From the NCBI GenBank assembly GCA_024684515.1, contig JAIKWS010000085.1, positions 7,375 through 71,374 of the forward strand: a DNA stretch of 64,000 bases. Reading direction: 5' to 3'. Numbering within the stretch: the stretch's first letter is position 1; each line of letters opens with the position of its first letter. This DNA is from Prevotella sp. (GTDB lineage: Bacteria > Bacteroidota > Bacteroidia > Bacteroidales > Bacteroidaceae). The position numbers and the translations under genes were made by a program. The notes under the pieces were generated by a model that saw only the letters and a program-made list of their open reading frames with translations, made no database searches and was not told the origin of the DNA. This document shows, piece after piece, positions 6-18,952 of the stretch.

Positions 6-1088
6 TTAATCTGCCGTCAGCTCGATGGTGGGGTTATCGAGGTCATAGCTGCCTAACTGATAGAGATAGGTGGGCTGGATGAGGGCATTGATGGTAATCT
101 TCTGTCCCGACTCCAATGAGACATCGAGCGTCCAGCTGTTCTTGGCCTGACAGTTCTCTCTGATGAGATGACCATACCGGTCGTAAACGTCATATACCGT
201 GGTGAGTATGACGGTACGTGGCTCACCCGATTTTAGCGGAGTGAAGAAGACTGGTATCTCCGTCACCTCAGGAGATACGGCTATCTGCACTTCAGCATTG
301 TCTTCCAGCAGGTCAATGTCTGCCTCAGAAGTGGAGAAGGGCTCGAAACTGATGGTGGAATAGGGAGACTCATTCTTGATAATGGCCTGGGTGGTACCTT
401 TCTCAGTGGTCATCACCACCCTCTTCACCTTGATCGTGCGCAGCTTGGCATAGTCGGTGTGAACAGAGAAGTTCAGGGCCACCTCGGCATAGATATGTTC
501 CATTAGCACGTACATGTAATTATCGCCCTCGGTGACCTCGTAGCTGAAACTGCCAGGAGTGACAACTACCGATGTATTAGTAATGTCGAAGCCATCAGGA
601 GTAGCTTCCTTTGCCACCCCTACGACCACACAGACATCCTGTGCACTGACCGTGTTCAGTCCGCTGAGTGTCAGTGTGGCTCCAGCTGGGTAGTCAGCAG
701 AGGTGATGGTTGCCGTGGCAGCTTCCTGCGGCATATAGCCATACACATAATATGTCTGAGCCGATACGATGGCTGTTCCCATCCAATCGCAGTCATGCTG
801 CCAGTTGAAGAATGGGGTGACGATTTTACTGCTTCCGCTGTTGCCATCGGCAGGCGAGAAGAAGAGCTTGATGATACCTGGGCTGCTGATACCTTTTACA
901 TACGCACTGTATCCCTCTGCCATGCCACGTGTGTCATGCTGCACCGATGTCCTGACCGAAGTACCCAGATAGATGGTAGCCATGGCCTTGTCATCGCCCT
1001 CCTCTCCGCTGTCGTTCTGACAGCCCGAGAGCAGTACGGTGGCGAAAAGCCATAGTGCGAACATCTTATATATCGTATGCTTCATCAT
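6..1088 (-). CDS. Fimbrillin-family surface lipoprotein (type V pilus accessory/tip candidate); last gene of pilus locus 1
   Basis: 360 aa. Lipoprotein signal ends in LLSGC and is followed by an acidic stretch (QNDSGEEGDD). A Thr-Arg (HDTRG) lies about 30 aa after the Cys, as at the Arg-processing site of type V pilins. There is a central EHIYAEVAL motif. It starts 13 bp downstream of the preceding pilin gene on the same strand. Confidence 0.55.
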   Translation of the reverse strand: MMKHTIYKMFALWLFATVLLSGCQNDSGEEGDDKAMATIYLGTSVRTSVQHDTRGMAEGYSAYVKGISSPGIIKLFFSPADGNSGSSKIVTPFFNWQHDCDWMGTAIVSAQTYYVYGYMPQEAATATITSADYPAGATLTLSGLNTVSAQDVCVVVGVAKEATPDGFDITNTSVVVTPGSFSYEVTEGDNYMYVLMEHIYAEVALNFSVHTDYAKLRTIKVKRVVMTTEKGTTQAIIKNESPYSTISFEPFSTSEADIDLLEDNAEVQIAVSPEVTEIPVFFTPLKSGEPRTVILTTVYDVYDRYGHLIRENCQAKNSWTLDVSLESGQKITINALIQPTYLYQLGSYDLDNPTIELTAD

Positions 1089-1101
1089 ATCGTTTCTTTC
1101 A

Positions 1102-2967
1102 TTACCAGTTATACACTGGGTGATCTGTCGTTCCCTTGCTGACCCAGTCTTTCACACCCACCTGGAGTTTTATAGATATACCCGTTTCACGTGGCGGCAC
1201 CACGTTGTAGGCATTCTCCAGTGTGCTGACTGTGCCTTTGATAACGGTGGCGGCATCGCTGGCAAACACCTGCTTGGGATTGTTGATTGTTTCCGCACCT
1301 TCAATCTTTCCACATAGATAGAGCTTGCAGCCAGGAGGTACCAGTCCACCCTTGACACTGATATCTTTCGTTGAGTTGTTCTGGAACTCGAAGAAGAGGT
1401 ACACATCCTCCCCCTCTGCCGTCGGCAACACCAGGGTATGGTTGATGGAATATGGTTTTTCTGACGACCCGTCCTTCCCTCTGTTGGTGGTCAGATTGAT
1501 TGTTGCGTTCATCGTATTGTCATAGAGTGTATAGGTATCGGTGCCAGCAGGTGAGAAGCTGAAGTCAACAGCTTTCTGTCCGCTGACGAGGATGCCCGTC
1601 AGCTGCAGGTCGCTCATCTGCACGGTCTCGCCCACATCGTCAGTAAGTGTTTCTGCATCAGCATCCAAGGCGTTGACCCCCCAGAGAATGACATCAAGGC
1701 GGCTGACAGCATACTGCACAGGTTTTATGAGTGCTATGGAATGGACATTCTCACTGACCGGATTGGTTGTGTATTGAGCCAGGACAGCAGACCAGTCGCT
1801 GGTGTTATCATTGTAGTATTCAGACTGTGTGCTTTCGCTCACCATAACCTTGGAATTAACATAGTAGTAGAGGGGTACGGGATAGGCGTAGCGATTGAGG
1901 GGCACCTGTGTGAGGTTGTCTTTATTACCAACGATACCGATATTATCTATGGAGCCATCGAGGACAGGATTATATTTTTTATTAGTGCCATCCCACTTCA
2001 GCGTGGCAGCGCCGTCGGGCAGGCCAAGAGAGGCTGGATAGTCAATGAACTTGGTACTGGAATAATCTGGATTCCATGATAGCGCATGGTTAGTTCCTTC
2101 TGTGAGCACATCGGTAGCTGCCGAGCCTATCTTCATGTTGGCTATGATCTTTTCTTTGATTGTCACGAGATCGCCTGTCAGTTCCGTCAGCGTCAGCAGC
2201 TTACTATAGAGATTCTGCAGGACTGCCAGCACATTGGGACTGGAGCCTACAGTCAGGGAGGTCATCTTTGCATAGAGAATACCCAAAGTAGTATTTTCAC
2301 CTTGTGCTGACCAATTTTCCGTATTACAAATACCGGTCACATAGTCTGCCATCGCCGTGGCAGCAGCGGGGGCAACAGCATCAGAACCATAGAACGTTTC
2401 TGGTGAGAAGCCAATGCCACTGGGAGCGCCTGCGTCAAGCCCTGTGATGGTGAAGCTGCCATTCAACTGTTTTTTCTTCATCGCCTTCTCGTCATCCGAG
2501 AGAGACTCAATGCCGGTTGGCGTTGCATCTGTTGCCTTGCCATAGAAGAGGAAGGCATTGGTTGTATTGGGTACTGTCAGCCCCTGGTAGAGCTGGGAGT
2601 TGCTTGCACTATTGAGCGTTGAGATGGTATTGGCAGTGGTCACTGTGGGAATGCCCATGGCAGGCAGTTCCACTTTGGCAGCGAGGGGGCTATGGCTACT
2701 TCCTACAGCATCAGCATCACTTATATTAAACGGTATCATCACGATATCCTGGATGCCACGGAAGACGGGTGATGTCTGTCCCTGTACGATAGCCTCCGTC
2801 ATACGTGTGGTCGTGCCGCCATCACCGGTGCTGGTACCGACGGCCAGGGCCAGCTCGACAAGCTGACTGCCCGTTGCAGGGCTGTCAGTTGTCTGCTGTT
2901 CCTCACTGCAGCCTGCCATGAGCAGGACTGCTGTCAGCAGCGTCATGATACCATTACCATATCTCAT
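1102..2967 (-). CDS. Mfa1/FimA-like type V pilin paralog (large, 621 aa)
   Basis: Lipobox MAGC plus acidic SEEQQ. Shares with the four upstream paralogs TTTRM...FRGIQDIVMIPF, VQYAVSRLDV and PPGCKLYLCGKI. The C-terminal strand-like motif GISIKLQVGVKDW is more divergent than in the others. Confidence 0.6.
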   Translation of the reverse strand: MRYGNGIMTLLTAVLLMAGCSEEQQTTDSPATGSQLVELALAVGTSTGDGGTTTRMTEAIVQGQTSPVFRGIQDIVMIPFNISDADAVGSSHSPLAAKVELPAMGIPTVTTANTISTLNSASNSQLYQGLTVPNTTNAFLFYGKATDATPTGIESLSDDEKAMKKKQLNGSFTITGLDAGAPSGIGFSPETFYGSDAVAPAAATAMADYVTGICNTENWSAQGENTTLGILYAKMTSLTVGSSPNVLAVLQNLYSKLLTLTELTGDLVTIKEKIIANMKIGSAATDVLTEGTNHALSWNPDYSSTKFIDYPASLGLPDGAATLKWDGTNKKYNPVLDGSIDNIGIVGNKDNLTQVPLNRYAYPVPLYYYVNSKVMVSESTQSEYYNDNTSDWSAVLAQYTTNPVSENVHSIALIKPVQYAVSRLDVILWGVNALDADAETLTDDVGETVQMSDLQLTGILVSGQKAVDFSFSPAGTDTYTLYDNTMNATINLTTNRGKDGSSEKPYSINHTLVLPTAEGEDVYLFFEFQNNSTKDISVKGGLVPPGCKLYLCGKIEGAETINNPKQVFASDAATVIKGTVSTLENAYNVVPPRETGISIKLQVGVKDWVSKGTTDHPVYNW

Positions 2968-3043
2968 GCTTTTCGCTCTTTTTTTTCATCTATTCCTTAC
3001 GCGCGTACATTATATTATATATGGCGCAGGAGATACTGTGTTG

Positions 3044-5095
3044 TCAGATCTGTGGATTCAGGTGCAGTCCGTTCTCCCAGTGCAGGTTCACACTCGTTCC
3101 GAACTCCAGTCCTGGTGAGTCGAGGTCGGGCACGCCATTGGTACCTGTTCCAGGTCCATCGGGGATGGGGTCTACGGTATCATCATCTGGGTCGATGGGG
3201 TAGTCAATCACTCCGTCGCCATCGGTATCCCATCCTGGCGTGTCGGGATTGTCAGGATCGACGATGATCACGTCTGGATTGCCGTCACCATCATAGTCGT
3301 ATGGATCAGGGTCACCATCGCCATCAGTATCCACAGCATCGGGAATACCATCGCCATCGGTATCGATATACTTGTCGGGTGTGCCGTCACCATCGCGGTC
3401 CAGATCAGGCTCACCATCGCCATCGAGGTCTGCATTACCACATAGCAGGGTGATGTTCACCTTGGTGGCATAGTCCTGGATGAAGATACGGTCGATGGTT
3501 CCTGCCTGATAGTTGGTCGTCGTCGTGGCGAGGGGGTCGAGTTTTGCGGTGAGGTAGAAGGTGCCACCGGCAGGAATCATGCCATCGGCACCCTGGAAGG
3601 CGGGACCATTGTTGACGAATTCAAGTGCCACATTGACAGGCACATCAGTCTTGGTCTCCAGGCCAAGTGTATAGTTCTCGCCATCAGAGGTCTTGCCAGG
3701 AAGGGCAGTAACATCACCGTTTATCTCGCGGTCGTAGATGGTATGCTGTACACTGGTCATCACTGGCTTCCAGTTGTAAGCCACCTCTTTCTGTCCGCCA
3801 ATGAGCATTCCCATAAGAGTGAAGCCCTTGGTGACATCCATCTTCGCACCCTTGGAATCATAGTAGTCATTAGCCTTCATCGTGATTCTGGTGTCGAGGC
3901 GTCCTACGGCATACTGCACCTGGTTGGCCAGTGCCACGCTCTGTGTCGATGCCGATACCGACAGCTCAGAACCCTCATACACACTGTTGATGACCTCGCT
4001 CCATTTCTCCTTGGCCTCATATTCGCCCGACTTCACCTCGTTAGAGGCCCTGAGGGGACTGTTCACCTGATAGTAGAGGCTGGCAGGATAGACATACTCG
4101 CTGAGCTGCTTGACCTCCATGTGCTTGCCATATTCGCTGGCAGCAGCCACGAACTGGGTGCCGTCCCATGTCACCTTGCCGGCACCTACGGGCAGGTTAA
4201 GACCAGCGGGATAGCCCTGATACTTGTCGCTGAGTGTGATGGACGAAGAATATCCCACGGGACCTGCTGCGCAGGCATCCTTGATGACGTTGCAGATAGC
4301 CTGTGCCACGTCAGCATCCACCTGAATGGAGGCTGCCAGTGGCGACAATGCTGAATAGAGCTCCCCCAGTGCTGCCTGTACGGCTGTTGACGATCCTGCC
4401 GTGAGTGTGATGAAGAGGTCGAAGTTCTTCTTCAGCATCTCGTTGGTGCTGGTCGACCATCCTGGTACCGAGGCCACGCTGTTGAGCAGGTCGATGAGTG
4501 CCAGTCCGACGGTGCTACCGCCACATGGCGTATCATCAGTGCAGATCGACTCGAGACTGAAACGGATGTCATTCACGGTCTTGAACTGGTTGATGTCGAG
4601 ACCCGTGTGTGTGATATAGCCATATCTGAACTTATCTGCGGGAGTGGTAATCACCTCATCTGCGCTGTTGTCGACAGCCTTGGCATATAAGAGGAAGTTC
4701 GTCGTGCCAATGGGTATGAACTGATCGTTGTAGACATAGAAATTGGTCTGCTCAGGATCTGCCAGGCCAGCACGTGAGATGGCAGACAGCCGGATGATAG
4801 AGCCCAGTGCTGTCGATGTGGTTGTGACATCATCATCGAAGGAATAGAGATGGATATTATCCATGCCTCTGAAGGAAGCCACGGTCTCATCATACTGCAC
4901 ATTGTCTGCGCTCATACGTGTTTTCTTTGCACCCACGATGTCTTTTGGCAGCGAGATGGCAAACTGTGTCTTGGCCACCTTGGCGCCAGTCACAGGATCA
5001 ACGTTTATGATGTCCTCGTTTTCAGAACATCCGCTAAACGTTACAAGAGCTGTCGCCACAGTGGCAAGCAAGCTGATTCTAGTCATTGTTTTCAT
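3044..5095 (-). CDS. Mfa1/FimA-like type V pilin paralog with thrombospondin type-3-like Ca-binding repeats (683 aa)
   Basis: Lipobox FSGC plus acidic SENED. Motifs KKTRM...FRGMDNIHLYSF, VQYAVGRLDTRITM and IPAGGTFYLTAKLDP, then about 84 aa of DxDxDGxPD repeats. C-terminal motif LEFGTSVNLHWENG. Closest paralog is 5132-7210. Confidence 0.7.
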   Translation of the reverse strand: MKTMTRISLLATVATALVTFSGCSENEDIINVDPVTGAKVAKTQFAISLPKDIVGAKKTRMSADNVQYDETVASFRGMDNIHLYSFDDDVTTTSTALGSIIRLSAISRAGLADPEQTNFYVYNDQFIPIGTTNFLLYAKAVDNSADEVITTPADKFRYGYITHTGLDINQFKTVNDIRFSLESICTDDTPCGGSTVGLALIDLLNSVASVPGWSTSTNEMLKKNFDLFITLTAGSSTAVQAALGELYSALSPLAASIQVDADVAQAICNVIKDACAAGPVGYSSSITLSDKYQGYPAGLNLPVGAGKVTWDGTQFVAAASEYGKHMEVKQLSEYVYPASLYYQVNSPLRASNEVKSGEYEAKEKWSEVINSVYEGSELSVSASTQSVALANQVQYAVGRLDTRITMKANDYYDSKGAKMDVTKGFTLMGMLIGGQKEVAYNWKPVMTSVQHTIYDREINGDVTALPGKTSDGENYTLGLETKTDVPVNVALEFVNNGPAFQGADGMIPAGGTFYLTAKLDPLATTTTNYQAGTIDRIFIQDYATKVNITLLCGNADLDGDGEPDLDRDGDGTPDKYIDTDGDGIPDAVDTDGDGDPDPYDYDGDGNPDVIIVDPDNPDTPGWDTDGDGVIDYPIDPDDDTVDPIPDGPGTGTNGVPDLDSPGLEFGTSVNLHWENGLHLNPQI
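3179..3430 (-). repeat. Coding segment for about six thrombospondin type-3-like (DxDxDGxxDxxD) repeats
   Basis: Translation is DLDGDGEPDLDRDGDGTPDKYIDTDGDGIPDAVDTDGDGDPDPYDYDGDGNPDVIIVDPDNPDTPGWDTDGDGVIDYPIDPDDD. It lies 44 aa before the C-terminus. Confidence 0.75.
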
Positions 5096-5131
5096 ATCTC
5101 GGAACTATTTTTATTATATTCGTTTACGTTT

Positions 5132-7210
5132 TCAGAATACTGGGTTGAAGACGATGCCTCTCTTCCAGCTGAGATCCACGCTAAGCCCTAGCTCGCGGTA
5201 TTTCACATCGCTGATGGCCGGCAGGCCATAGGTGGCCGTGGCCAGTCCCTCGTTGCGGCTAGGTGTGTCAGGATAGCTGCCATCGCCATTGGTGGCTATT
5301 GGCAGGTCGCCCACGCCATCACCATCGGTATCCCATGCCGGCACGCCACTGCCATCGGTCACAATCCTGTCCATCAGACCGTCGCCATCGATGTCATAGT
5401 CATCAGGCTGCCCGTCGCCATTCGTATCGACACCTGTGGGCAGACCATTGCTGTCCTTGAGGTACACATCGGGTATGCCATCGTCATTGTCATCACGGTC
5501 AGGCTTACCGTCGCCATCCAGATCGCTATAGCCATTGAGGATGGTCACGGTGAGCTTCGTGGCATAGTCCTGCTTGAAGATACAGTCTAGCGACCCACCC
5601 TTGTAGTTGGTGGCTGCCCGCGGGTCCAGCTCTGCCACGAGGTAGAAGGTGCCGCCAGCGGGTATGGTGCCATCAGCACCCAGGAAGTCATTACCGTTGT
5701 TGACCAGTTCCAGTGCCATATAGGTAGTGGCATCCGATGGTGTCTCCAGACCCAGGGTATAGTTGACGCCTGTGGTGACGCCAGGCCTGAGGGTATAGCT
5801 GCCTGTCAGTGCGGTATCGTAGAGGGTATAGGTGTCTGCACTGGCCACAGGACGGAAGCGATAGTCAGCCTGGCACTGGCCTCCGAAGAGCATGCCCTTC
5901 AGTGTGAAGCCATTGGTGACGTCGACCTTCTTGCCGGCAGCATCGTAGAACGTACCCTTTCTCATTGTCACCTTCGTATCGATCCTGCCCACGGCATACT
6001 GCAGCTGGTTGACCATGGCCACCGAGCGGGTGGTCTTGGACACCTTCGAGGCCGCACCCTCATAGATCTTGGTGATGACACGGCTCCATGATGTCTCGTC
6101 GGCATACTGTCCCGACTCGATAGAATCGGAAGCCACGACGGGTGTATTGGCATAGTACCACAGGGCAGCGGGATAGACATATTCATCAGTATGCTCCACG
6201 CCAAGTCCCTTGCCATAGGCCTGTCTGGCATCGATGAAGGCCGTGCCGTCCCACACACAACGTGCGGCACCCTCTGGTAGGTGTACGTCAGCAGGATAGC
6301 CCTGGTAGTCATCAGCCAGCGTCAGCCTCTTGCTGTCAGCAGCAGGTGCTGAGGCACAGGCATTGGCGATGAGTGTACGCAGGTGCTGTGCCAGGGCATA
6401 GCCATTGCTCTGCGGACTGACATCCTCCAGGTTGACATAGAGTTGCGAGAGCATCGCCTGTACGGCAAACGATGATGACGTGCGCAGGGATACGAACTGG
6501 TTATAAAGCGTGCTGATCAATCCCTCTGCCGTCGACCAACGGTCGTTGGGAGCCGGTGCGCTACACGTGGCATTGGCCAGTGTGGTGAGCAGCTGCAGCA
6601 GCCGCTGTCCCACGGCACTGCCGGCACACGACTCGTCGCTGCTGTTGATGCTCCGCAGACTGAAGCGGATATCATCAAGCACCCTACCCTGCTCTGCCGT
6701 GAGGCCACGTGCCACCAGCGAGCCATAGCGGTGCCAGTCGTCAAGGGTGGTGAGAGCCTCACCAGCATTGCGGTCGATGGCCTTCGCATAGCCAAGCAGC
6801 TGTCTGGTGCCCTCAGGCACCATCACCTCGTTATACACGTAGTAGTTCGTCTCCGGCACGTCGTTGAGTTCACTAGGCACGATAGGACCGAGATTGGAGA
6901 TGAAGGCCAGGGGAGTCGTAGCAGCATCGGGCACGGCACCAAAGGCCAGGAATGTCACATTGTCCAGTCCACGGAAAGCATCCAGGTCCTCGGTGAGCTG
7001 CACCACATCAGCCCCCTGACGGGTGGTCATGCTGTCGGAGGCTCCCACGATGGCATCGGGCATGGACAGTGCGAGCTGCACGCAGACCGTCGATGGATTG
7101 TCTGTCGTGCCGCTGCTGGTCTCATCCCCGCTGTCGGAACATGCGACGATGATGAGCATCATCGCCATCATGCTCGTCAGCCACCAATTATGATCTCTCC
7201 AGTGCTTCAC
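5132..7210 (-). CDS. Mfa1/FimA-like type V pilin paralog with thrombospondin type-3-like Ca-binding repeats (692 aa)
   Basis: Lipobox IVAC plus SDSGDE. Motifs MTTRQ...FRGLDNVTFLAF, LQYAVGRIDTKVTM and IPAGGTFYLVAELDP, then about 86 aa of DxDxDG repeats. C-terminal motif ELGLSVDLSWKRG. The true start may be an internal Met of the MKHWRDHNWWLTSMMAMM leader. Confidence 0.7.
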   Translation of the reverse strand: MKHWRDHNWWLTSMMAMMLIIVACSDSGDETSSGTTDNPSTVCVQLALSMPDAIVGASDSMTTRQGADVVQLTEDLDAFRGLDNVTFLAFGAVPDAATTPLAFISNLGPIVPSELNDVPETNYYVYNEVMVPEGTRQLLGYAKAIDRNAGEALTTLDDWHRYGSLVARGLTAEQGRVLDDIRFSLRSINSSDESCAGSAVGQRLLQLLTTLANATCSAPAPNDRWSTAEGLISTLYNQFVSLRTSSSFAVQAMLSQLYVNLEDVSPQSNGYALAQHLRTLIANACASAPAADSKRLTLADDYQGYPADVHLPEGAARCVWDGTAFIDARQAYGKGLGVEHTDEYVYPAALWYYANTPVVASDSIESGQYADETSWSRVITKIYEGAASKVSKTTRSVAMVNQLQYAVGRIDTKVTMRKGTFYDAAGKKVDVTNGFTLKGMLFGGQCQADYRFRPVASADTYTLYDTALTGSYTLRPGVTTGVNYTLGLETPSDATTYMALELVNNGNDFLGADGTIPAGGTFYLVAELDPRAATNYKGGSLDCIFKQDYATKLTVTILNGYSDLDGDGKPDRDDNDDGIPDVYLKDSNGLPTGVDTNGDGQPDDYDIDGDGLMDRIVTDGSGVPAWDTDGDGVGDLPIATNGDGSYPDTPSRNEGLATATYGLPAISDVKYRELGLSVDLSWKRGIVFNPVF
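5267..5524 (-). repeat. Coding segment for about six thrombospondin type-3-like repeats
   Basis: Translation is DLDGDGKPDRDDNDDGIPDVYLKDSNGLPTGVDTNGDGQPDDYDIDGDGLMDRIVTDGSGVPAWDTDGDGVGDLPIATNGDGSYPD. It also ends 44 aa before the C-terminus. Confidence 0.75.
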
Positions 7211-7310
7211 TTATTCTTTCTTTATTTGGTTGCCCTCATCGTCATCAGGCGAGCGGGCAGTTATTGTCTATCTTTGGTTGCGCTATATTTATTAATGAAC
7301 GCGCGAGGCA

Positions 7311-8345
7311 TCAGATGCCAGGATTAGGGCCTAGGCCCTCTCTCCAGTTGAATTCCACCGAGGTGCCTATCTCCACGTTGGGAGAGTAGACAGAGCCATC
7401 GTCTTTCAGCAGGGCATATACCACCTTGATCTGTCCTGCCGACAACGGCTCGTCGATATAGAGGGTGGTACGTGTGATAGTATTGTCGGGCATGGTCACA
7501 TTGACATACATCTGCCAGATGCTGCGCAGACGTGCCGTCTCACTATCGTCGCGGGTGTCTGTCTGTGCCTCCTCGGCAGTGTCGTAGCTTGGGAACGAGA
7601 CGGCATAGAACACCTCACGCTCCACGGGAGGTTTCGTCACCCGGTAGTCGCGCAGCACAGGGTGCTCATTATGCGTATAGACGGAGTCAGCGACATAGAA
7701 TCCGTCGGCAAAGCCACGGCAAGCCACCTGCATATCCTTATATTCCACGCCATTGGTCTTCACCACCAGGATATTGGCACAGTTCACCATGCTCAGCAGC
7801 ACTTCAAAGGTCTGGCTCTTTCCGAACTCGACATTGAGACGCTTGCGTGCCGAGAAGAGTCCGGTGCTGTGTCCATAGATGGTATCGCCTTTTTCCTGCC
7901 TAAGGTAGTAAACAGAAGGTATGTCGCCACGCGACATGTCCACCTCTTTCTCCTTGTCGATATTGGCGAGGGCCAGGTGGTTGTATTCACTCACGGGCAG
8001 CTCCAGGGTGTAGACAGCCTGCTCGGCTTCCATCTGGCGGTGCACGTAGTACGTGAGTTTATGCACATTGGTATTAAAGAACGACAGGTCGATGTCATGT
8101 GCAAACTCACTGAAGATATTCTTCAGCGAGTCCTGGAGCAGGTTGGCCACATTGTCTTCGAACCGGTTTCTCAGCTCTGTCTGCAGTTCCGTCTGCAGGT
8201 TGGTCTTCAGCCGCACCTCATATTCGATGTGGAAGTCCGACTCACAGTCTGCCGCATTGTCATCAATGGTCGAGCAGGCCGTGAATAGTGAGCCCCACAG
8301 TGTGATACAGCCCCATGCCAACAGCTTTTTCAGTAGAGAAGTCAT
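7311..8345 (-). CDS. FimB/Mfa2-like type V pilus anchor candidate (344 aa)
   Basis: Lipobox FTAC followed by STIDDNAADCE (a second Cys after an acidic run, as recalled for Mfa2/FimB-family proteins; compare 25301-26350). It has no Thr-Arg processing motif after the signal. It keeps the locus-wide C-terminal motif VEIGTSVEFNWREG. Confidence 0.5.
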   Translation of the reverse strand: MTSLLKKLLAWGCITLWGSLFTACSTIDDNAADCESDFHIEYEVRLKTNLQTELQTELRNRFEDNVANLLQDSLKNIFSEFAHDIDLSFFNTNVHKLTYYVHRQMEAEQAVYTLELPVSEYNHLALANIDKEKEVDMSRGDIPSVYYLRQEKGDTIYGHSTGLFSARKRLNVEFGKSQTFEVLLSMVNCANILVVKTNGVEYKDMQVACRGFADGFYVADSVYTHNEHPVLRDYRVTKPPVEREVFYAVSFPSYDTAEEAQTDTRDDSETARLRSIWQMYVNVTMPDNTITRTTLYIDEPLSAGQIKVVYALLKDDGSVYSPNVEIGTSVEFNWREGLGPNPGI

Positions 8346-8369
8346 AACCGATTCTTTTTTTTAAAATCC

Positions 8370-8392
8370 CCCGCACCCGCAAGGAGTGCGGG
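8370..8392 (-). terminator. Intra-operon hairpin (possible attenuator) between the second stalk-like pilin gene and the anchor gene
   Basis: 7-bp GC-rich stem CCCGCAC/GTGCGGG with a 9-nt loop. On the transcribed (minus) strand it is followed by GGAUUUUAAAAAAAAG. The U tract is short. Confidence 0.35.
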
Positions 8393-8428
8393 AGAATATG
8401 CTTATTGATGAGTGATACGATACACGGA

Positions 8429-10315
8429 TTAGAAGGTATGATTGAAGGTGATACCCTCCTTCCAGGAAAGGTCAACCGAGAAGCCAAGTTCTATTTCTGG
8501 TGTACGCAGGTCTGGAATGGTGTTGTAGGCAGTACCCAGCCCCTTAGGAGCATCTATGAAGCCATCACCATCATTATCATTGGCTGAAGAAAGGTAGTCT
8601 CCTGCACCAATAGTAAAGTTGGCAATAGTCATGAAATCCTGCATGAAGACACGATTTCCAGTATTGGCAGATCCTGATACGGAGCCAGACACGTCATTTT
8701 TGGGATCAAGCTGTGCTACCATATAGAACTTACAACCAGCGGGAACGACTCCTGTTGCACCTTCAAAATCAGCACCAGTATTAATAAATTCCAGTACGAC
8801 ATAAACCGGCTTTTCTGCTACGGTCTCCAATGCCAAAGTATAGGTGGGACCAGCAGCGGTAGTCTTATTCAGAGCCTTTGAACCATCAATCACATTGTCA
8901 TAGATGATATAGGAACCCTCGGTAGCCGGCTCAAATTTGTAATCCACCTTGTTTTGTCCGCCAATCAGGACACCCGTCAAAGTATATCCTGCAGCAGGAA
9001 TGGCCACTTCCTCACCCCTACGGTCGTAATACTTCTCGGCATCCATCTTGGCTACGGTAACATCCAGACGACCTACTGCATACTGTATCTGGTCTTTGAT
9101 AGCCACAGAACGTGTCACACTCGATACAGATGTCTTATCATAACCTGCCAGGATTGTAGCCCAAGCATTGTCATTATTATAAAGAGCAGCCTTTGAGACA
9201 TCTGCTGTCATGATTTCGCTATTGCCATAATACCACAGATTGGCAGGATAGACATAATTGGCAGCTTTTGTATTATTGCGGCCAGTATCTCCATCATAAT
9301 CGACAGTAGCAACAGCAGGAGTAGCATTAGACCAAGTCAGATAGGCAGCTCCGTCAGGCAGATTAACCTTACCGGGCCAATAAGTCTCAGAACTGTTACC
9401 GATGGCAGCAGTGAAAGTCAATGTCCCATCTGGTGTTGCCGGTGCACTTGCATAAGTACTATTGGTAATAGCTGCTGCGATAGCTTGTGAGACAGCATCT
9501 GTATTCTTGTAAACAGACTTATACAAATCCACGACGGCAGCCTGTACATCCAAGGATGAGCCTGTCGTCAGCCTGATGAAATTGGTGTATAGCTCACCTA
9601 AGCCGGCATTATACCATGCCTTATTGGCTTCCGTATTGTTAGCGGAGTTAGCGCAGTCTGCCCAATGTGTGGCAGCAGCAATGGATGTTACATAGGCTGC
9701 CAAAGCATCAGCCACATCATCCTGATAGGTTGATGGATTCCAGATCTTCACTGGTGAGAATGCGATCGTGCCTATTTCTGCATCATCCGTAATGCCAGGA
9801 CTCGTAACAGATGTTGTTACGTTCAGCCCACCCTCGGCAAACGTCGCAGTAGTCGCGGTTTGTTTTGCACGTCCGTAGAACAGGAAGCCTGAGGTTCCTA
9901 CAGGAATAGTCACATCATTATACAGCACAGCATTACTGGTAGTCAGAAGTGATGCTTTGGGAATGCTATTAGAAACTTCCGTGACTGAAGGCATGGTCAT
10001 GTTTTTAAATATAATGTTGCTACCCAGACGAGCTGTCCTGTCAGTAGGACTGGCATAGGGAATTAGCGTGATGCTGTCGATGCCACGGAAAGAAGCGATA
10101 GTCTGAGCATACTGTACTGTAGCAGCAGACTGGCGGGTAGTATTATTATTTACCACACCGTCCGTAAGAGCTATGGTGAGTTGCGTTTTCACGTTCTCTC
10201 CATCATAAGTGGGGTTTACATCCGCCACCTCATCTTCCGAGGAGCAAGCGGAGAAACCTACTGCACCAACGAGTGCTATTGCACTCAGAAAGGCATACTT
10301 GAACTTCTTTTTCAT
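8429..10315 (-). CDS. Mfa1/FimA-like type V pilin paralog (628 aa), stalk candidate
   Basis: Lipobox FSAC plus SSEDE. Motifs NTTRQ...FRGIDSITLIPY, IQYAVGRLDVTVA and VPAGCKFYMVAQLDP. C-terminal motif IELGFSVDLSWKEG. Visibly more AT-rich than the downstream paralogs. Confidence 0.7.
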   Translation of the reverse strand: MKKKFKYAFLSAIALVGAVGFSACSSEDEVADVNPTYDGENVKTQLTIALTDGVVNNNTTRQSAATVQYAQTIASFRGIDSITLIPYASPTDRTARLGSNIIFKNMTMPSVTEVSNSIPKASLLTTSNAVLYNDVTIPVGTSGFLFYGRAKQTATTATFAEGGLNVTTSVTSPGITDDAEIGTIAFSPVKIWNPSTYQDDVADALAAYVTSIAAATHWADCANSANNTEANKAWYNAGLGELYTNFIRLTTGSSLDVQAAVVDLYKSVYKNTDAVSQAIAAAITNSTYASAPATPDGTLTFTAAIGNSSETYWPGKVNLPDGAAYLTWSNATPAVATVDYDGDTGRNNTKAANYVYPANLWYYGNSEIMTADVSKAALYNNDNAWATILAGYDKTSVSSVTRSVAIKDQIQYAVGRLDVTVAKMDAEKYYDRRGEEVAIPAAGYTLTGVLIGGQNKVDYKFEPATEGSYIIYDNVIDGSKALNKTTAAGPTYTLALETVAEKPVYVVLEFINTGADFEGATGVVPAGCKFYMVAQLDPKNDVSGSVSGSANTGNRVFMQDFMTIANFTIGAGDYLSSANDNDGDGFIDAPKGLGTAYNTIPDLRTPEIELGFSVDLSWKEGITFNHTF

Positions 10316-10384
10316 AAGTTTCTCAATTTTTATTTGTTATTACTTTTTTATTACTTAACTATAGTGCTTTTTTTCTTCATTACA

Positions 10385-12292
10385 TCATTCTATGGCAATG
10401 GTTTGTGTTATCCCCTGTTGCCATGACAGATCCACAGAGAGTCCCAGCTCCAGCTGCGGCATGCGCAGGTCTGGCAGGGTGTTATAGGCATTCTTCAGAC
10501 TGCCAACACTGAGGGTGACAGTTGTCACATAGTCGCGTACAAAAGCCTTCTTGATAAGCGTTTCTGTACCCGTGTACTTTGCTGTCGTGTTCGCCCAGGG
10601 GTCGAGTTTACCAATCAGATAGAACTTGCAGCCAGGAGGAATCAGGTGATAGACCTTGCCTGTTAGTTCCGCTGCGGTACTGTAGCCACTGATGGTCTCT
10701 GTTGAATTATTCTGAAACTCCACTGCGATATATACATCGCCATCGGTATTGCCTGTACCTTCAACATCATCGATGGTCTCAAAGCAAAGCGTGTGGTTAG
10801 TCACAGTATTTCCTTTCTGCAGATACATACCCGATGGGATGTCGCAGTCGTAGATGGTCTTACCACCTGCCGCTGCCGGTATGAACTGCCAGTCTACCGT
10901 CTGATTCTGGTTGCCGACGAGGACTCCCGTCACGGGGAACAGATGGCTGGTGTTTGTCGAACTGACATTGAAGGAGACACTTTCGTTGTCAAGAAGAGCA
11001 TCTGTACTTGGCAGGACTTTTACGTCTAGTCGTCCTACGGCATAGTTGATGGGATTGACGAGGACCACGGACTTCGTTGCCGTGGTAATGATATTGCCAT
11101 TCGTGTAGAGGTCAAGGACGTCAGACCACTTTGACTTTGAACCATAGTTGCTCGCCTGCTTGGCATTCGACGTGCTGATGGTCGTATTACCGAAATAGTA
11201 GAGCGGGGCAGGATAGACATAGTCCGTGGCATCGCTGACCGTGAACTTACTTCCCATGTTGGTAGTATTCCACTGCGTTTCGAAGGCAGAAGAGGTTGCA
11301 TTCCACTCGATGCTTGCCGCACCATCAGGCAATCCGATGTTGGCAGGATAGCCGCTGATGGCATCCGTAAAGGTCAGCGTTCCTGTGGGATTATTTTCCG
11401 AATCTTTTCCTGCAGAGGCATAAGTTACATCGGTGATCGCTGTGACAATAGCCTGAGAAACAGCATCCGTCAGCCTATACACATTGACATACAACTGCTG
11501 CACAGCAGCCTGGATGTTTGCCGAGGAGCCAGAGGTGATGAGCAGGAATTTATCGTAAAGCAATTTCAGATTGCCAGTAGAACTGCTCCAGCCACTGGCC
11601 TTTGCGATATTCGTGAGATAAGTATTGATGGCTGCAGCCTTGGTATCACCAGACTGAGTAGTCTTTCCACCTGTTTCATCGGTGGCAATAGGAACGTGAG
11701 AGAAACTGATTCCGCTCAGACTTTCACCGGTAAGACCGCTTTCTGCGAGAGCTCCGTTGATATGGTTTATGTAAATGTTGTCTGTTGCTGTGCCATCAGC
11801 CTGTGGGGTTGCCGCACCATAGAACAGGAAGGCATTGGTACCCATCTGGATATCGACGTCAGCATAGGTCTGTGCATGGTCTGCCGTGGAATTAAGGGCT
11901 GTTGACGCTGCTGCTACAGTATTTGCAATAGAAATAGTAGGTTTTGCACTAGCCACTGGCAGCACGAGGTTCGCGCCATTGCGGGTGGCATTCTCCGTGC
12001 CTACCACATTGCCATCAGTGGTAAGGAATGGTATCAGCTTCACACCGCTGATGCCACGAAACGATTCCACCGTCTGTGCTGACTGCACAGTGGCGTCCGA
12101 CTGACGGGTAACGGATTTGCCGGCATTCGAATTACTGAACGACAGGCTGATCTGTGCCTTGATCACCCCTGTCCGTCCTGACACGACCAGATCGTTATCG
12201 TAATCACTGCAGGCAACGACAAAAAGTGTCAGCACCGGGATAAGAAGGCAGGCCAAAGAACCTTTGAGCATTATTTTGTTCATTCTATTCAT
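10385..12292 (-). CDS. Mfa1/FimA-like type V pilin paralog (635 aa), first gene of the pilin block
   Basis: Lipobox VVAC plus SDYDND. Motifs SVTRQ...FRGISGVKLIPF, INYAVGRLDVKV and IPPGCKFYLIGKLDP. C-terminal motif LELGLSVDLSWQQG. Confidence 0.7.
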   Translation of the reverse strand: MNRMNKIMLKGSLACLLIPVLTLFVVACSDYDNDLVVSGRTGVIKAQISLSFSNSNAGKSVTRQSDATVQSAQTVESFRGISGVKLIPFLTTDGNVVGTENATRNGANLVLPVASAKPTISIANTVAAASTALNSTADHAQTYADVDIQMGTNAFLFYGAATPQADGTATDNIYINHINGALAESGLTGESLSGISFSHVPIATDETGGKTTQSGDTKAAAINTYLTNIAKASGWSSSTGNLKLLYDKFLLITSGSSANIQAAVQQLYVNVYRLTDAVSQAIVTAITDVTYASAGKDSENNPTGTLTFTDAISGYPANIGLPDGAASIEWNATSSAFETQWNTTNMGSKFTVSDATDYVYPAPLYYFGNTTISTSNAKQASNYGSKSKWSDVLDLYTNGNIITTATKSVVLVNPINYAVGRLDVKVLPSTDALLDNESVSFNVSSTNTSHLFPVTGVLVGNQNQTVDWQFIPAAAGGKTIYDCDIPSGMYLQKGNTVTNHTLCFETIDDVEGTGNTDGDVYIAVEFQNNSTETISGYSTAAELTGKVYHLIPPGCKFYLIGKLDPWANTTAKYTGTETLIKKAFVRDYVTTVTLSVGSLKNAYNTLPDLRMPQLELGLSVDLSWQQGITQTIAIE

Positions 12293-12455: not shown

Positions 12456-12463
12456 CAAAGTTA
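12456..12463 (-). promoter_or_regulatory. Candidate Bacteroidetes -7 promoter box (TAACTTTG) for the pilin block
   Basis: Exact match to TAnnTTTG on the minus strand, about 165 nt upstream of the ATG at 12292. No clear -33 TTTG was seen. Confidence 0.45.
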
Positions 12464-12810
12464 GTCATTTTTATTTAATTAGCAACTATTCAGGGGAATT
12501 TTTTTTTATGTTTTTGTAAATTCTGCTACTTTTTTTGTATATTTCAACATTCTGAGACGGTTTTCACCTTATTTTTTTTACCTTTAAACATAACAATTGT
12601 GCGAACCGAACTTTTGGAAATGACCCCAAAAACCATTTGTGTGCATGAAAACCAAGTACAAAAGATTGGCTAGACACACAAATCAGAGAGAGAAAACCAG
12701 CTGCTTGAACTCTGGAAGTTGACGAAAACCAGAGCATGAGAAAGTTGAGATTTTTCTTCTGCTATCAACTCACAATCGTGGAGTTCAAAAAAAATTCTTG
12801 TAGTTGTTTT

Positions 12811-12915
12811 GCACAACACCTCATACAATCGCCGGAAATGCCCTGACACAGGATGTTTCAGACCTGGTGGGTGTTGGCCAAACACCCCATAAACACCTCA
12901 TAAACACCTCATACA
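12811..12915. repeat. Left arm of a ~105-bp imperfect inverted repeat
   Basis: Hand alignment to the reverse complement of 13333-13437 gives roughly 85% identity. The core is GAAATGCCCTG..CAGG..TTTCAG.CCTGGTGGGTGTTG.CCAAACACC followed by ACACCTCATAA-type units. Confidence 0.7.
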
Positions 12916-13028
12916 ACACCTCATAAACACCCCATAAACACCTCATACAACACCTCATAAACACCTCATACAACACCTCATAAACACCTCGTTGGCACCT
13001 CGTTGGCACTTCACAAAACACCTCGTAA
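12882..13028. repeat. Tandem array of ~13 units of 11-12 nt (ACACCTCATAA / ACACCTCATACA and variants)
   Basis: Read directly from the sequence. The units are ACACCCCATAA, ACACCTCATAA and ACACCTCATACA in alternating 11/12-nt steps, degenerating to CACCTCGTTGG at the right end. Three further units occur in inverted orientation at 13333-13372. Confidence 0.9.
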
Positions 13029-13332
13029 ACATATTACCAAAGTCACAAAAGTTACCAATTGAAACAATAAAAGATATTTACATAAGAAAAACTGTCTCCC
13101 ATCCTGTTTTTTCTCCCTAGTTAGGAAAAAATATTTCTCTCGCCTAGAAAATAGTTTTTCGTAACGAAAGAAGAAAAAACGCATCATATGAAGCAACGAA
13201 AATATTTTACAAATGAAACAAATCAAGAGATCTTTAGAATTAAATTACTTTACAAAACGAAAATAACGCAAGAACCTGTCTTTTAACGTCAATAGTTAAT
13301 GAATCATAAAATAACGGCCATAAAGGCCTTTT

Positions 13333-13437
13333 TCATGAGGTGTTATATGAGGTGTTTACGAGGTGTTTGGGCAACACCCACCAGGCCTGAAACGCCCTGT
13401 AGCAGGGCATTTCGAGGCAATTCGTATGAGATGTTGC
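13333..13437. repeat. Right arm of the ~105-bp imperfect inverted repeat
   Basis: Its reverse complement aligns with 12811-12915. It contains an internal hairpin GCCCTG-tag-CAGGGC. Confidence 0.7.
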
Positions 13438-13671
13438 TAAAAAAGAGTAGTATTTTATTTGAAAAATCATCGTTTGTTGGTAATAAAATCGGACAAAAGG
13501 TGTCGTTGTAAGAACACCCTCCCTACCCTTCCACTGAGATGAGCGAGACCACACACGGAGGGCCAAAGCACACAGCAAGATGGCACTCGGATGGTGCTCT
13601 GTAGGATGGTGCCCAGTCATAGCATCCATCCGGTGGTACACCTAAAAAAAAGAGGTAGAAGAACGTCTGAG

Positions 13672-14784
13672 CTACCACGGGTTCCTCACCCATGTATTGA
13701 CCGCCTGTCCCATGAAGCGTTTGAAGGCATTGCTGAAGGTGCGATAGCTTCGGAAGCCACTGTCGTAGGCCAGCTGCTGGGCAGAGACAGAACCGAGCTG
13801 TGGCTGTGAGATGGCCTCGCGATAGAGACGTACGAAGTGCTCGACTCGCAAACGGTTGATATAGGCATTGTAGGTGGTGCCCTGGTCGGCTAAATACTGG
13901 CTGAGATACGTGCGATTGGTTCCTATGGCACGACAGAGCTGGTCGAGGGTGAGGTCGCTATGCAGATACAACTGACGCGATTCGCAACATTCTTCTAGCA
14001 GGCTGCCTATGCCGGTAAGGGTAGAGGGTGACATAGCGGTCCTGGCCGTGGCCAACTGTCCGTCGACATCGTCTGCGGCAAGGGTGCCGTCAGCTACCAG
14101 GCTCTGCAACGATTCCACACGCCAGAGCACGATGATGACAAGGATGACAGAAATGAGCATCGAGAGATACTCTATCCACAGGGCTCCCATATTGAACAGA
14201 TAGACGATATAGAAGAGCTGGACACCTACTATCAGCACGAGATTCTTGCCCAGCTCCTTGTTCCTGAGATCCGAGAAGTTGGCTCGCAGCCAGTGCCCAT
14301 ACTGTCGCAAGGCATAGGCCATGTAGCTAAAGAAGAATAGGAACAGCAACGTGACATAGATGCTGATCAGCCACGTGAAACTGGCATCACGCATCACAAT
14401 GCCCACGACAACGGCTATCAGCACTCCTGGAGCAACCATCAGGGCTACTGGCCATAATGGACGACGACGGTCCTGCAGCATGCGGATGAGCAACGGCAGC
14501 AAGGTGAATCCCATGAAGAGGATGTCGAGTGCCTGACCAAGGGCATTGCCCAGCACCAGGTCGTCGAACGTACATCCCAGCACCACCCACCACAGATTGC
14601 TCAGTGCGAATGTCCCCACGACACCAGCTGCCCAGTAGCGTAACTCCCTGGGAGGCTGTACCGTCATCGAAAAGGCATTGCCACGTCTGAACAGCAGGTA
14701 AAGACATACCAGCACATAGAAGACGGTAACACCCCCATAGGATGCTACGAACAAGGCATCATGAAATGCTTGCAGTTCATACAT
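13672..14784 (-). CDS. Membrane-embedded AraC-family transcriptional regulator (about 7 TM segments plus a C-terminal HTH)
   Basis: 370 aa. About seven hydrophobic segments in residues 1-235. The C-terminal tail is AraC-like: LTLDQLCRAIGTNRTYLSQYL...YINRLRVEHFVRL...AYDSGFRSYRTFSNAFKRFMG. Confidence 0.75.
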   Translation of the reverse strand: MYELQAFHDALFVASYGGVTVFYVLVCLYLLFRRGNAFSMTVQPPRELRYWAAGVVGTFALSNLWWVVLGCTFDDLVLGNALGQALDILFMGFTLLPLLIRMLQDRRRPLWPVALMVAPGVLIAVVVGIVMRDASFTWLISIYVTLLFLFFFSYMAYALRQYGHWLRANFSDLRNKELGKNLVLIVGVQLFYIVYLFNMGALWIEYLSMLISVILVIIVLWRVESLQSLVADGTLAADDVDGQLATARTAMSPSTLTGIGSLLEECCESRQLYLHSDLTLDQLCRAIGTNRTYLSQYLADQGTTYNAYINRLRVEHFVRLYREAISQPQLGSVSAQQLAYDSGFRSYRTFSNAFKRFMGQAVNTWVRNPW

Positions 14785-16843: not shown

Positions 16844-16863
16844 GGCGGAATGATTTGAATGGA

Positions 16864-16871
16864 CAAATATA
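16864..16871 (-). promoter_or_regulatory. Candidate -7 box (TATATTTG)
   Basis: TAnnTTTG on the minus strand, 21 nt upstream of the ATG at 16843. Confidence 0.45.
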
Positions 16872-17160
16872 CTAATAATCGCAGAACAATTGACAATTCG
16901 GAAAGGAAATATAACACAAATTAACAACTCGGGGCGGAAATGGCATGGGAAGGTAGCGGACCAACGGAAGCATCACACATTATTATATATAGGAGTCGCA
17001 CCTACTTATATGCAAGAGTCACCATGCCTGTCGCAGGCATCCACGAGCAACTAACGACAAAAACGGGGATGATGCCGCTGACTTGACGCAAATTCTGCCT
17101 TCTGTCGCAACATAATGAAAAATAAAAAGGCAAAATCGGTTCTGTGTCGCAAAAAATATG

Positions 17161-18926: not shown

Positions 18927-18952
18927 CAACCCAGACAGAGATATCACCATAC

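Follow-up and report, generated by a model that had tools for sequence, protein, structure and literature searches.

A divergent type V pilus operon in Prevotella whose large pilins fall into position-specific classes

Among Bacteroidales, type V pili are the chief adhesive fibres, and to our knowledge their assembly order and subunit specificity have been worked out only for the two Porphyromonas gingivalis systems. The stretch of Prevotella sp. DNA analysed here (assembly GCA_024684515.1, contig JAIKWS010000085.1, positions 7,375 to 71,374; 64,000 nucleotides, hereafter the window) begins with a run of lipoprotein genes that encode five large paralogs around a putative pilus anchor. An initial annotation had proposed that these paralogs are Mfa1-like and build a heteropolymeric or switchable stalk. 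Are they interchangeable stalk subunits, or does each have a place of its own in the pilus?

Seven intact ORFs, denoted A to G and all encoding lipoproteins, run on the minus strand from 12292 to 6, with gaps of 69, 83, 100, 36, 76 and 13 nt between them, as the initial annotation had described (gaps of 13-100). Genes A (10385-12292, 635 aa) and B (8429-10315, 628 aa) encode large type V pilins of an upstream pre-anchor class and an anchor-adjacent class, respectively, and gene C (7311-8345, 344 aa) encodes a predicted Mfa2/FimB-like anchor and terminator pilin. These are followed by two post-anchor large pilins with Asp-rich linkers, D (5132-7210, 692 aa) and E (3044-5095, 683 aa), by the last large pilin, F (1102-2967, 621 aa), of a class with a YNW tail, and by a small type V pilin, G (6-1088, 360 aa). 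Gene D starts with GTG, and an ATG at 7171 is an alternative start. The large paralogs A, B, D, E and F (621-692 aa) share 31-45% identity, with 31-38% to A or B and 45% between D and E. The only minus-strand TAnnTTTG between 1 and 13700 is TAACTTTG at 12456..12463, a candidate Bacteroidota -7 box about 165 nt upstream of A that is a consensus match only; none lies within the operon from A to G. Scans for sigma-70 promoters and terminators gave results no better than shuffles. We conclude that the region is one intact operon for a Bacteroidales type V (FimA/Mfa-type) pilus with a divergent large-pilin family.

Type V pilins (FimA superfamily) were recognised by a lipobox Cys, an anchor strand with an Arg/Lys loop, two beta-sandwich (transthyretin-like) domains and donor strands. 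All seven proteins have a lipobox Cys at residues 20-28, with acidic residues next to it in the pilins. In the five large pilins a Thr-Arg lies 35-40 residues past this Cys (31-40 when G is included), FRG follows 14-15 residues beyond, and (Q/N)YAV(G/S)R(L/I)D and (I/V)P(A/P)G(G/C)..Y(L/M) are present. The shared export signal, Arg site, FRG and central motif of the initial annotation were thus recovered, except that the Thr-Arg context in A is VTR. The Cys and Arg residues are C28 and R63 in A, C24 and R61 in B, C24 and R64 in D, C23 and R60 in E, C20 and R55 in F, and C23 and R54 in G. Across 42 homologs of the large family, T60 and R61 are at least 90% conserved, with no variation at F76, R77, G78, E609, G611, S613 or W618. 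The exact tail ELG(L/F)SVDLSW..G, previously assigned to four of the five, occurs in three, at residues 615-635 of A, 609-628 of B and 673-692 of D. Gene E has the variant EFGTSVNLHWENG, and F a more divergent tail, ETGISIKLQVGVKDWVSKG...YNW, that is conserved within the F orthologous class. The claim that every paralog keeps both the Arg site and the donor tail consequently holds at the sequence level for A, B, D and E, with a variant tail in F.

By no sequence model (Pfam, NCBIfam or profile-profile) are the large paralogs members of the Mfa1 family. None of A, B, D, E and F matched Pfam at E<=1, and the best score against NCBIfam Mfa1 (NF038041) was 27.6 bits for a cutoff of 130, confined to the N-terminal 100 residues (in E, E=1.6e-6, under the model cutoff), so that the protein body is covered by no Pfam or NCBIfam model. 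When the profile of the large family was compared with those of a FimA/Fimbrillin_C alignment, G and the anchor, only the termini matched. Against the Fimbrillin_C/FimA-type stalk of a second, canonical locus in the window, hhalign gave 94% (E about 1e-7) over residues 1-61 only; the region aligning with Mfa1/FimA-type pilins comprises the signal peptide, the propeptide and the Thr-Arg site only. Profile searches with the large pilins, the anchor and G against PDB chain sequences returned nothing useful. The AF2 model of B (pLDDT 81.7) shows an N-terminal strand (41-49), a low-confidence loop bearing R61 and a terminal strand (619-627). Its top 18 Foldseek matches were all Bacteroidales type V pilins, with weak scores (E=5e-4 to 7e-2, TM at most 0.46), partly because of a helical insertion of about 85 residues (~200-283) that is absent from the matched pilin structures. 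The model of G (pLDDT 86.6) matched Bacteroidales pilins, including Mfa3 and Mfa2, with confidence (E=8e-9 to 1e-5, probability 1.00). The large proteins are type V pilins, albeit with weak fold matches, of a divergent and so far unannotated family, which comprises about 1,700 clusters at 50% identity from rumen and gut Prevotellaceae, Paludibacteraceae and other Bacteroidales.

The identification as a type V pilus operon stands on these fold matches of G and B, on the aligned pro-region of the large pilins, on an upstream DUF3575 gene like that of the canonical locus, and on gene C. With the Pfam Mfa2 model (PF08842), C scored 26.4 bits, above the gathering threshold of 21.2, in a match spanning profile positions 21-158 of 277; the large pilins failed all pilin models. 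Mfa2 was also matched by 16 of 45 orthologs of C, at best with E=6e-9. With the canonical Mfa2 of the window, C aligned in the N-terminal CSxxxDDLxxC region alone. The TR/FRG site is absent from C. No anchor-class gene had the TR..FRG pattern, and a looser Thr-Arg/Lys pattern occurred in 3 of the 78 searched for it. The tail of C, EIGTSVEFNWREG, aligns with the donor tail of the large pilins (profile-profile E=1e-4), the alignment of the two profiles being confined to the last 21 residues. Judged from these sequence features, C is an Mfa2/FimB-like anchor that lacks the Arg site and keeps the donor tail, as had been proposed.

The gene order of relatives, a comparison suggested by the initial annotation, sorted the paralogs by position. 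Among 82 loci (81 relatives and the window), sequence clusters of the large paralogs each drew almost all their genes from one operon position; of 130 best cross-locus matches, 119 fell in the same positional class, a number reached by 0 of 10000 permutations. The classes are A, upstream; B, anchor-adjacent and universal; D/E, post-anchor and Asp-rich; and F, with the YNW tail. C-terminal tails are class-specific, and orthologs of each paralog at the same position in other species share 41-62% identity. The anchor gene directly follows a large pilin in 80 of the 82 loci, and 53 loci, some cut by contig ends, have one large pilin plus the anchor. The cluster of B holds 21 anchor-adjacent genes and one upstream gene, and its class is the only large pilin in most loci; B is most likely the main stalk subunit. 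In 17 of the 82 loci the anchor-adjacent gene is preceded by an A-type gene. The best cross-locus relatives of A always come first where two or three genes precede the anchor, and A ends in a class-specific GITQTIxI(E/Q). The five paralogs are, by this sequence comparison, ancient, position-specific subunit classes in the order stalk, anchor, accessory, tip. Such position-tied classes with their own tails point to a fixed, specialised part for each paralog more than to a stalk of interchangeable or switchable subunits.

Gene D clusters with E and with post-anchor genes of ~690 aa in loci L001, L007, L008 and L077, and the best matches of E are the second post-anchor genes of L008, L001 and L007. 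In locus L010 a gene of the D/E class precedes the anchor, and position is not absolute. Both proteins contain an Asp-rich linker, at residues 548-636 of D (5303..5569, minus strand; 6 DxDxDG-like motifs), where it separates the donor tail from the last strand of the body, and at residues 541-665 of E (3101..3475, minus strand; 7 such motifs). The linkers matched no Pfam family at E<=1, thrombospondin type 3-like repeats having been considered, and their motifs suggest that they probably bind Ca2+. D and E are candidate adaptor or distal-segment subunits.

For F and G, the evidence lies in the tails and their neighbours. Gene F is 62% identical to the equivalent gene of locus L083. A tail in (Y/H/F)NW was accompanied by a G-type gene directly downstream in 13 of 13 loci, as opposed to 0 of 9 loci with other tails, all nine of which have an extra gene of ~400 aa in between (Fisher p = 2e-6, counting loci as independent of kinship). 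On this evidence F is a candidate adaptor whose donor strand would go to G. Gene G ends ...YDLDNPTIELTAD, three residues past the EL of a PDLxxPxxEL hinge common to the large pilins (...DLDNPTIEL in G). The SV.L.W..G donor tail is absent from G and was found in 0 of 23 G-class proteins. With a pilin fold and an Arg site and without the donor tail, G is a candidate tip pilin. In all 19 checkable loci the G-type gene is followed by a giant ORF that has a signal peptide and GGNVYGGG repeats. A giant secreted adhesin for this operon is probably encoded just past the window edge and would join G distally.

Upstream of A, a 570-aa protein with a DUF3575 beta-barrel (Pfam, E=2e-36) and OmpA-like and TPR regions, both weak Pfam matches, is encoded at 15215..16927 on the minus strand. 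Of the 73 related loci with room for one, 67 have a same-strand DUF3575 homolog immediately before the first large pilin; this gene is likely the first of the locus type, and its barrel may partner the pilus in the outer membrane. A functional study of DUF3575 was not found in our literature search. Between this gene and A (13672..14784, minus strand) lies a 370-aa, membrane-associated AraC-type protein with a hydrophobic N-terminal half and a C-terminus matching Pfam HTH_18 (E=3e-11) and HTH_AraC (E=6e-8). It is a candidate regulator of the operon; an AraC-like gene occurs in only 9 related loci and is therefore not a core part.

A long inverted repeat around an AT-rich core occupies 12810..13440. 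Its arms (12835-12902 and 13346-13413) are 88% complementary, and it contains about 12 tandem units of 11-12 nt, AACACCTCATA, with 15 occurrences of the unit against 1.0 expected and a DNA fold z of -9.7. The repeat was present in 0 of 83 related loci. It is a candidate MITE-like element or regulatory array. Phase-variable type V pili with an invertible promoter have been described in Phocaeicola vulgatus (PMC12940148). A role of the repeat as a phase-variation switch was rejected as unsupported: it contains no TAnnTTTG, no recombinase was found among the neighbouring genes scanned against Pfam, and relatives have no counterpart.

We propose, with a probability of roughly 0.6, that this divergent type V operon encodes an ordered pilus with G at the tip, F, E and D as adaptors, B and possibly A as the stalk, and C as the anchor. 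The genes and their motifs, the fold and Mfa2-family matches, the positional orthology and the covariation of tail and next gene are observed; what follows on cleavage, assembly order, Ca2+ binding and the parts played by A, D, E and F is inferred. All products would be exported as surface lipoproteins, and an Arg-specific protease would cleave at the conserved Thr-Arg, in the loop that follows the N-terminal anchor strand. Cleavage would free the C-terminal donor strands, which would enter the groove of the previously assembled subunit. G would sit at the distal end, because it has the cleavage site and no donor tail, probably joined by the giant secreted adhesin. F would donate its class-specific YNW tail to G; E and D would serve as adaptor or distal-segment subunits whose donor strands are carried on an Asp-rich linker of 90-125 residues. 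B would form the main stalk, with A as a second stalk-class subunit, and C, which lacks the cleavage site and mimics the stalk donor tail, would cap and anchor the base.

A more specific form of this proposal is tentative. It describes a segmented pilus (tip G, then F, then E/D, a shaft of A and/or B, and anchor C) whose order would be read from the class-specific tails. The long Asp-rich linkers of D and E would bind Ca2+ and act as a flexible or calcium-tuned joint, and the DUF3575 barrel, here taken as the invariable first product of the locus, would supply an outer-membrane partner for assembly or anchoring that is otherwise missing. If true, such a joint would be a feature not known from type V pili.

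It is possible, though less likely, that A and B alone form the shaft, mixed or in successive segments, with D to G as accessory proteins. The recurrence of A-type genes in 17 loci, the conservation of their class with its complete donor tail and a last strand of its own, and the presence in A of every processing motif would fit such a shaft. However, most loci lack an A-type gene, and A can equally be read as an adaptor encoded upstream, given the pre-anchor D/E gene of L010.

The heteropolymeric or switchable stalk, in which the five large paralogs would be equivalent and would co-polymerise or substitute for one another, is unlikely. None of the five lacks the Arg site or a C-terminal tail, and the near-identical donor motif ELG[LF]SVDLSW of A, B and D makes a common groove compatible with sequence alone; the genes are moreover intact, in one apparent transcription unit with no internal minus-strand TAnnTTTG. 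Yet the paralogs are old classes fixed to operon position, the divergent tail of F covaries with the next gene, and 53 of 82 loci show one large pilin and an anchor. A search for internal promoters and invertible switches through which one paralog could be chosen over another found none. Nor does the gene order depart from the canon as the initial annotation had supposed: D, E, F and G occupy the accessory slot of fim and mfa, and the sole real difference in order is the second stalk-class gene, A, ahead of B. The combination of an Arg site and a donor strand is not diagnostic of a stalk subunit, since the adaptor Mfa3 also has donor strands (PMC13655056).

We consider it very improbable that the large proteins do not polymerise and serve instead as other surface lipoproteins, such as ligand binders with a pilin-like scaffold and a helical insertion. 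Their absence from all sequence models, the weak global fold scores and the conserved insertion at ~200-283, unseen in matched pilins, speak for such proteins; against them stand the conserved TR site and FRG, an Mfa2-type anchor that copies the C-terminal tail of the large pilins and immediately follows one of them in 80 of 82 loci, and a donor-less G pilin followed by a giant adhesin. Decay of tandem duplicates around one functional gene, which the initial annotation had named as its own counter-case, has nothing beyond the paralogy itself in its favour and is hardly credible beside intact ORFs, motifs conserved in each class and same-position orthologs at 41-62% identity.

Domain libraries miss this family, and its operons are annotated as strings of hypothetical proteins. 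Profiles for the large pilins, the anchor and the tip partners would improve the annotation of rumen Bacteroidales genomes. The positional classes and the covariation of tail and next gene predict that donor tails encode assembly order.

The gene order of fim and mfa is stalk, anchor, accessory pilins, and donor strands are present in Mfa1, Mfa2 and the adaptor Mfa3 and absent from Mfa4 and Mfa5 (PMC13655056). The locus resembles mfa1-mfa5 of P. gingivalis in this order, and its relatives also end in a giant secreted adhesin. Shared with the Mfa system are lipoprotein precursors, an Arg in the loop behind the N-terminal strand, and donor strands in stalk, anchor and adaptor and not in the tip pilin (PMC13655056, PMC5954841). 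The pro-region of the large pilins aligns with NCBIfam Mfa1, but these proteins fail that model and all Pfam pilin models. They differ further in the helical insertion of about 85 residues and the DxDxDG linkers of D and E, and in gene number, with two pre-anchor and three stalk-like post-anchor genes here and one Mfa1 and one Mfa3 in mfa. A text search of PMC9409006 for locus architecture gave no match.

The canonical type V locus of the window (22398-33712, plus strand) likewise has a DUF3575/OmpA gene at its head. Next come a stalk, an Mfa2 anchor and several additional pilins, and among those past the anchor is a second large gene resembling Fimbrillin_C. The pro-region is homologous (CSS-acidic...TQxxISxP...TTR). 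In contrast to the proteins described here, its products are recognised by Pfam as Fimbrillin_C, Mfa2 (E=2.5e-58), Mfa_like_1 and Mfa_like_2. Its stalk and Mfa2 share a tail of their own, WIVR..IVL, whereas ELGxSVDLSW is the motif here, suggesting that the two systems do not cross-assemble.

In chaperone-usher P (PapG-F-E-K-A-H) and type 1 (FimH-G-F-A) pili, operon paralogs are ordered by donor-strand and groove specificity into tip fibrillum, adaptors, rod and terminator. The likeness to these pili is an analogy only, as fold family and machinery are unrelated: type V pili have no chaperone or usher, and their strand exchange is triggered by a protease acting on lipoprotein precursors.

The seven ORFs of the pilus operon at 6-12292 were all intact and on the minus strand, in the order A (12292-10385, 635 aa), B (10315-8429, 628 aa), C (8345-7311, 344 aa), D (7210-5132, 692 aa), E (5095-3044, 683 aa), F (2967-1102, 621 aa), and G (1088-6, 360 aa), with gaps of 69, 83, 100, 36, 76, and 13 nt in transcription order. 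The five large pilins (A, B, D, E, and F) are paralogs with 31-38% identity (45% between D and E), C is the anchor candidate, and G is a small pilin and tip candidate. In each large pilin, a lipobox Cys at residues 20-28 is followed by acidic residues and, 35-40 residues past the Cys, by the Thr-Arg (TR) of a putative protease site; FRG, (Q/N)YAV(G/S)R(L/I)D, and (I/V)P(A/P)G(G/C)..Y(L/M) are also common to all five. These results bear out the operon and shared motifs described in the initial annotation. The C-terminal donor-strand motif ELG(L/F)SVDLSW..G, which had been assigned to four large proteins, was exact in A, B, and D, and the fourth, E, has a near match (EFGTSVNLHWENG); F has a longer variant with YNW at the end. 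C lacks the TR/FRG site and ends in EIGTSVEFNWREG. The TR of G is at residue 54, and this protein has no tail of this type.

No Pfam family matched A, B, D, E, or F at E<=1. The NCBIfam Mfa1 model matched D weakly and E over the first ~100 residues only (27.6 bits, cutoff 130), and PDB searches with single sequences and profiles gave no match for the large pilins. When the large family was compared by profile-profile alignment with the window's canonical stalk pilin and a small FimA/Fimbrillin_C alignment, only residues 1-61 aligned (94% probability, E about 1e-7), covering the signal peptide, the CSS-acidic motif, the TQxxISxP strand, and the TTR site. On this alignment, the pro-region of the large pilins is homologous to that of classical Mfa1-type pilins, with the body beyond sequence detection. 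C matched Pfam Mfa2 (26.4 bits, above the gathering threshold of 21.2), as did 16 of 45 orthologs. The only region common to the large-pilin and anchor profiles was the last 21 residues (LELGxSVDLxWxxG..., E=1e-4), which fits an anchor that has to donate into the stalk groove.

For B, an AlphaFold2 model was made from 42 homologs (mean pLDDT 81.7); it has a strand at residues 41-49, a low-confidence loop containing R61, and a beta-rich domain on the N-terminal side, and a second beta-rich domain, a disordered segment (605-616), and a confident terminal strand (619-627) on the C-terminal side. Its top 18 Foldseek matches in the PDB were all Bacteroidales type V pilins and Mfa2; the scores were weak (E values from 5e-4 to 7e-2, TM no higher than 0.46), so the predicted fold agrees in direction but not strongly. 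The model of G (pLDDT 86.6) matched BF1858, BVU_2522, BACOVA_04980, BF2867, Mfa3, and Mfa2 (E=8e-9 to 1e-5, probability 1.00), and here the predicted pilin fold is clear. The assignment of these genes to a type V pilus operon stands; the operon is real and well formed, and its mechanism is not new. The two beta-rich domains of B are separated by a helical insertion (residues ~200-283, window ~9470-9715) of five helices, conserved in the large pilins, with invariant residues that include W218, S254, and L264 (B numbering). The insertion was not found in the type V pilin structures matched by the B model.

The large-pilin family is large, yet unannotated. It had 854 matches in a 90%-clustered collection, with no Pfam domain among the 120 matches listed, and the few members with a source name were called hypothetical; at E<=1e-3, it comprised 1,713 clusters at 50% identity. 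Species-representative genomes carrying it were from rumen and gut Prevotellaceae, Paludibacteraceae, and other Bacteroidales, with Hallella mizrahii, Prevotella lacticifex, Xylanibacter rarus, and Segatella bryantii among the cultured carriers. We classed the ORFs of 82 loci, including the window, with large-pilin (BIG), anchor (anc), and G-type (g) profiles; contig ends truncate some of the loci. The layouts were BIG-anc (53 loci), BIG-BIG-anc-BIG-g (9), BIG-anc-BIG-g (6), BIG-anc-BIG-BIG-BIG-g, BIG-BIG-BIG-anc-BIG-g, and BIG-BIG-anc-BIG-BIG-BIG-g (2 each), and others (8). The survey of relatives recovered the window's exact gene order, BIG-BIG-anc-BIG-BIG-BIG-g, in one further locus (L008), and stalk-like genes flanking the anchor on both sides are a recurrent, conserved design.

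The large pilins formed sequence clusters that were nearly pure by operon position. The best cross-locus match fell in the same positional class for 119 of 130 large pilins, a value reached by none of 10,000 label permutations. The B class lies immediately ahead of the anchor and is the sole large pilin in most loci, the A class is upstream and ends in GITQTIxI(E/Q), the D and E class is post-anchor and ~690 aa long, and the F class ends in (Y/H/F)NW. By these sequence classes, the five paralogs do not appear to be interchangeable copies. In F-class loci with the NW tail, a G-type gene came next within about 100 nt (13/13), whereas in those with other tails an extra gene of ~400 aa intervened (9/9). 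This covariation was perfect (Fisher p = 2e-6, with the kinship of loci ignored) and is as expected if the donor tail fits the groove of the next gene's product. The 23 G-class proteins all stop just past a conserved ...PDLDNPTI... hinge, which is also found in the large pilins as PDLRTPxLEL, and lack the rest of the tail. A giant ORF with a signal peptide and GGNVYGGG repeats directly followed the G-type gene in all 19 checkable related loci (from 21084 onward in L001 and from 16063 onward in L012); its length was 3,771 aa in L001 and exceeded 1,100 aa where the locus end interrupts it, and it is likely an Mfa5-like adhesin. The window edge at 1-6 probably cuts the operon short: since the window ends 5 nt past the G stop codon, its giant ORF, if present, is cut off.

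The best reading of these data is an ordered, multi-segment pilus, in which G and the giant adhesin would form the tip and F would come next; E and D would serve as adaptors behind it, B would make up the shaft, and C would anchor the pilus. From the motifs and the model, the subunits would assemble by strand exchange that a protease sets off. A could belong to the shaft as its second component or be one more adaptor, and a two-component shaft of A and B is a possible but doubtful arrangement. The heteropolymeric or switchable stalk proposed in the initial annotation gains no support here, and a stalk mixed from all five large proteins is unlikely because the paralogs are bound to position and the F tail covaries with its neighbour. 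The unannotated family, its positional subunit classes, and the tail-neighbour covariation together make the assembly order of type V pili testable.

In the proposed adaptors D and E, the donor tail is connected to the last body strand by an Asp-rich linker 90-125 residues long, with six (D, window 5303-5569) and seven (E, 3101-3475) DxDxDG-like motifs, which by sequence are of the calcium-binding type. No Pfam model matched these linkers. B has one such motif (DNDGDG at residue 580), and A and F have none.

The operon looks mosaic. B, C, D, and E were closest to L008 and L001, and F and G to L083 (BIG-BIG-anc-BIG-BIG-g), with 62% identity to their counterparts there; B shared 35% identity with the L083 gene and 49% with the L008 gene. 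B had a GC3 of 0.417, far below C (0.693) and D (0.684); the range was 0.55-0.69 in the other six operon genes and 0.70-0.76 in the window's housekeeping genes. The low GC3 of B and the differing nearest loci suggest modular recombination or stalk-gene replacement.

In 67 of 73 related loci, the gene immediately ahead of the first large pilin encodes a DUF3575 barrel. The window has two such genes (15215-16927, minus; 22398-23651, plus), the second being the first gene of another pilus locus. DUF3575 is often fused to an OmpA-like domain, and its product may be a partner of type V pili in the outer membrane; a full-text literature search returned no functional study. Between the first gene and A lie a gene for an AraC-type regulator (13672-14784) and a spacer of 1.4 kb. 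Between the regulator gene and A, the spacer holds a long inverted repeat (12810-13440) with an AT-rich core; its 68-nt arms (12835-12902 and 13346-13413) are 88% complementary and reach about 100 nt in the DNA fold. Within the repeat, an 11-12 nt unit, AACACCTCATA, is present in about 12 tandem copies (15 occurrences vs 1 expected). No promoter consensus was found inside the repeat and no recombinase among the neighbouring genes, and none of the 83 related loci has it; it may have arisen as a MITE-like insertion or serve as an array of regulator-binding sites. On the correct strand, the sole Bacteroidota-type -7 box (12456-12463) lies outside the repeat.

The second pilus locus (22398-33712, plus strand) is canonical type V and served as an internal control for a tail shared by stalk and anchor. 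It encodes DUF3575/OmpA (22398-23651), a Fimbrillin_C stalk (23693-25279), an Mfa2 anchor (25301-26350, E=2.5e-58), a 615-aa weak Fimbrillin_C protein, a 344-aa protein, Mfa_like_1 (816 aa), Mfa_like_2 (381 aa), and a 305-aa lipoprotein. Its stalk and Mfa2 tails are alike (WIVR..IVL) and unlike the tail of the A-G operon, suggesting that the window's two pili do not cross-assemble. Between the two loci, ORFs at 17115-18674 (plus, 519 aa) and 20828-21562 (minus, 244 aa), neither with a Pfam match, adjoin a Y-family DNA polymerase gene (18914-20464).

Type V operons with several paralogs are common; in B. fragilis 638R, 93 pilus-component genes are spread over 22 operons (bioRxiv 10.1101/2024.11.15.621889). 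In P. gingivalis, the operon order is stalk (fimA, mfa1), anchor (fimB, mfa2), and accessory pilins, and assembly starts at the tip and ends on insertion of an anchor without a cleavage site (PMC13655056). The mid-operon anchor, initially taken as a departure from the canon, is therefore in its normal slot, with D, E, F, and G in accessory slots. Donor strands are present in Mfa1, Mfa2, and the adaptor Mfa3 and absent from Mfa4 and Mfa5 (PMC13655056), and Mfa3 joins Mfa1 to the tip proteins (PMC5954841). The Arg site and donor tail together, previously read as the mark of a stalk, thus do not tell a stalk subunit from an adaptor. Compared with P. gingivalis, the window's operon differs in its sequence family, the helical insertion, the second stalk-class gene A, three accessory genes that are still stalk-like, and the Asp-rich linkers of D and E.
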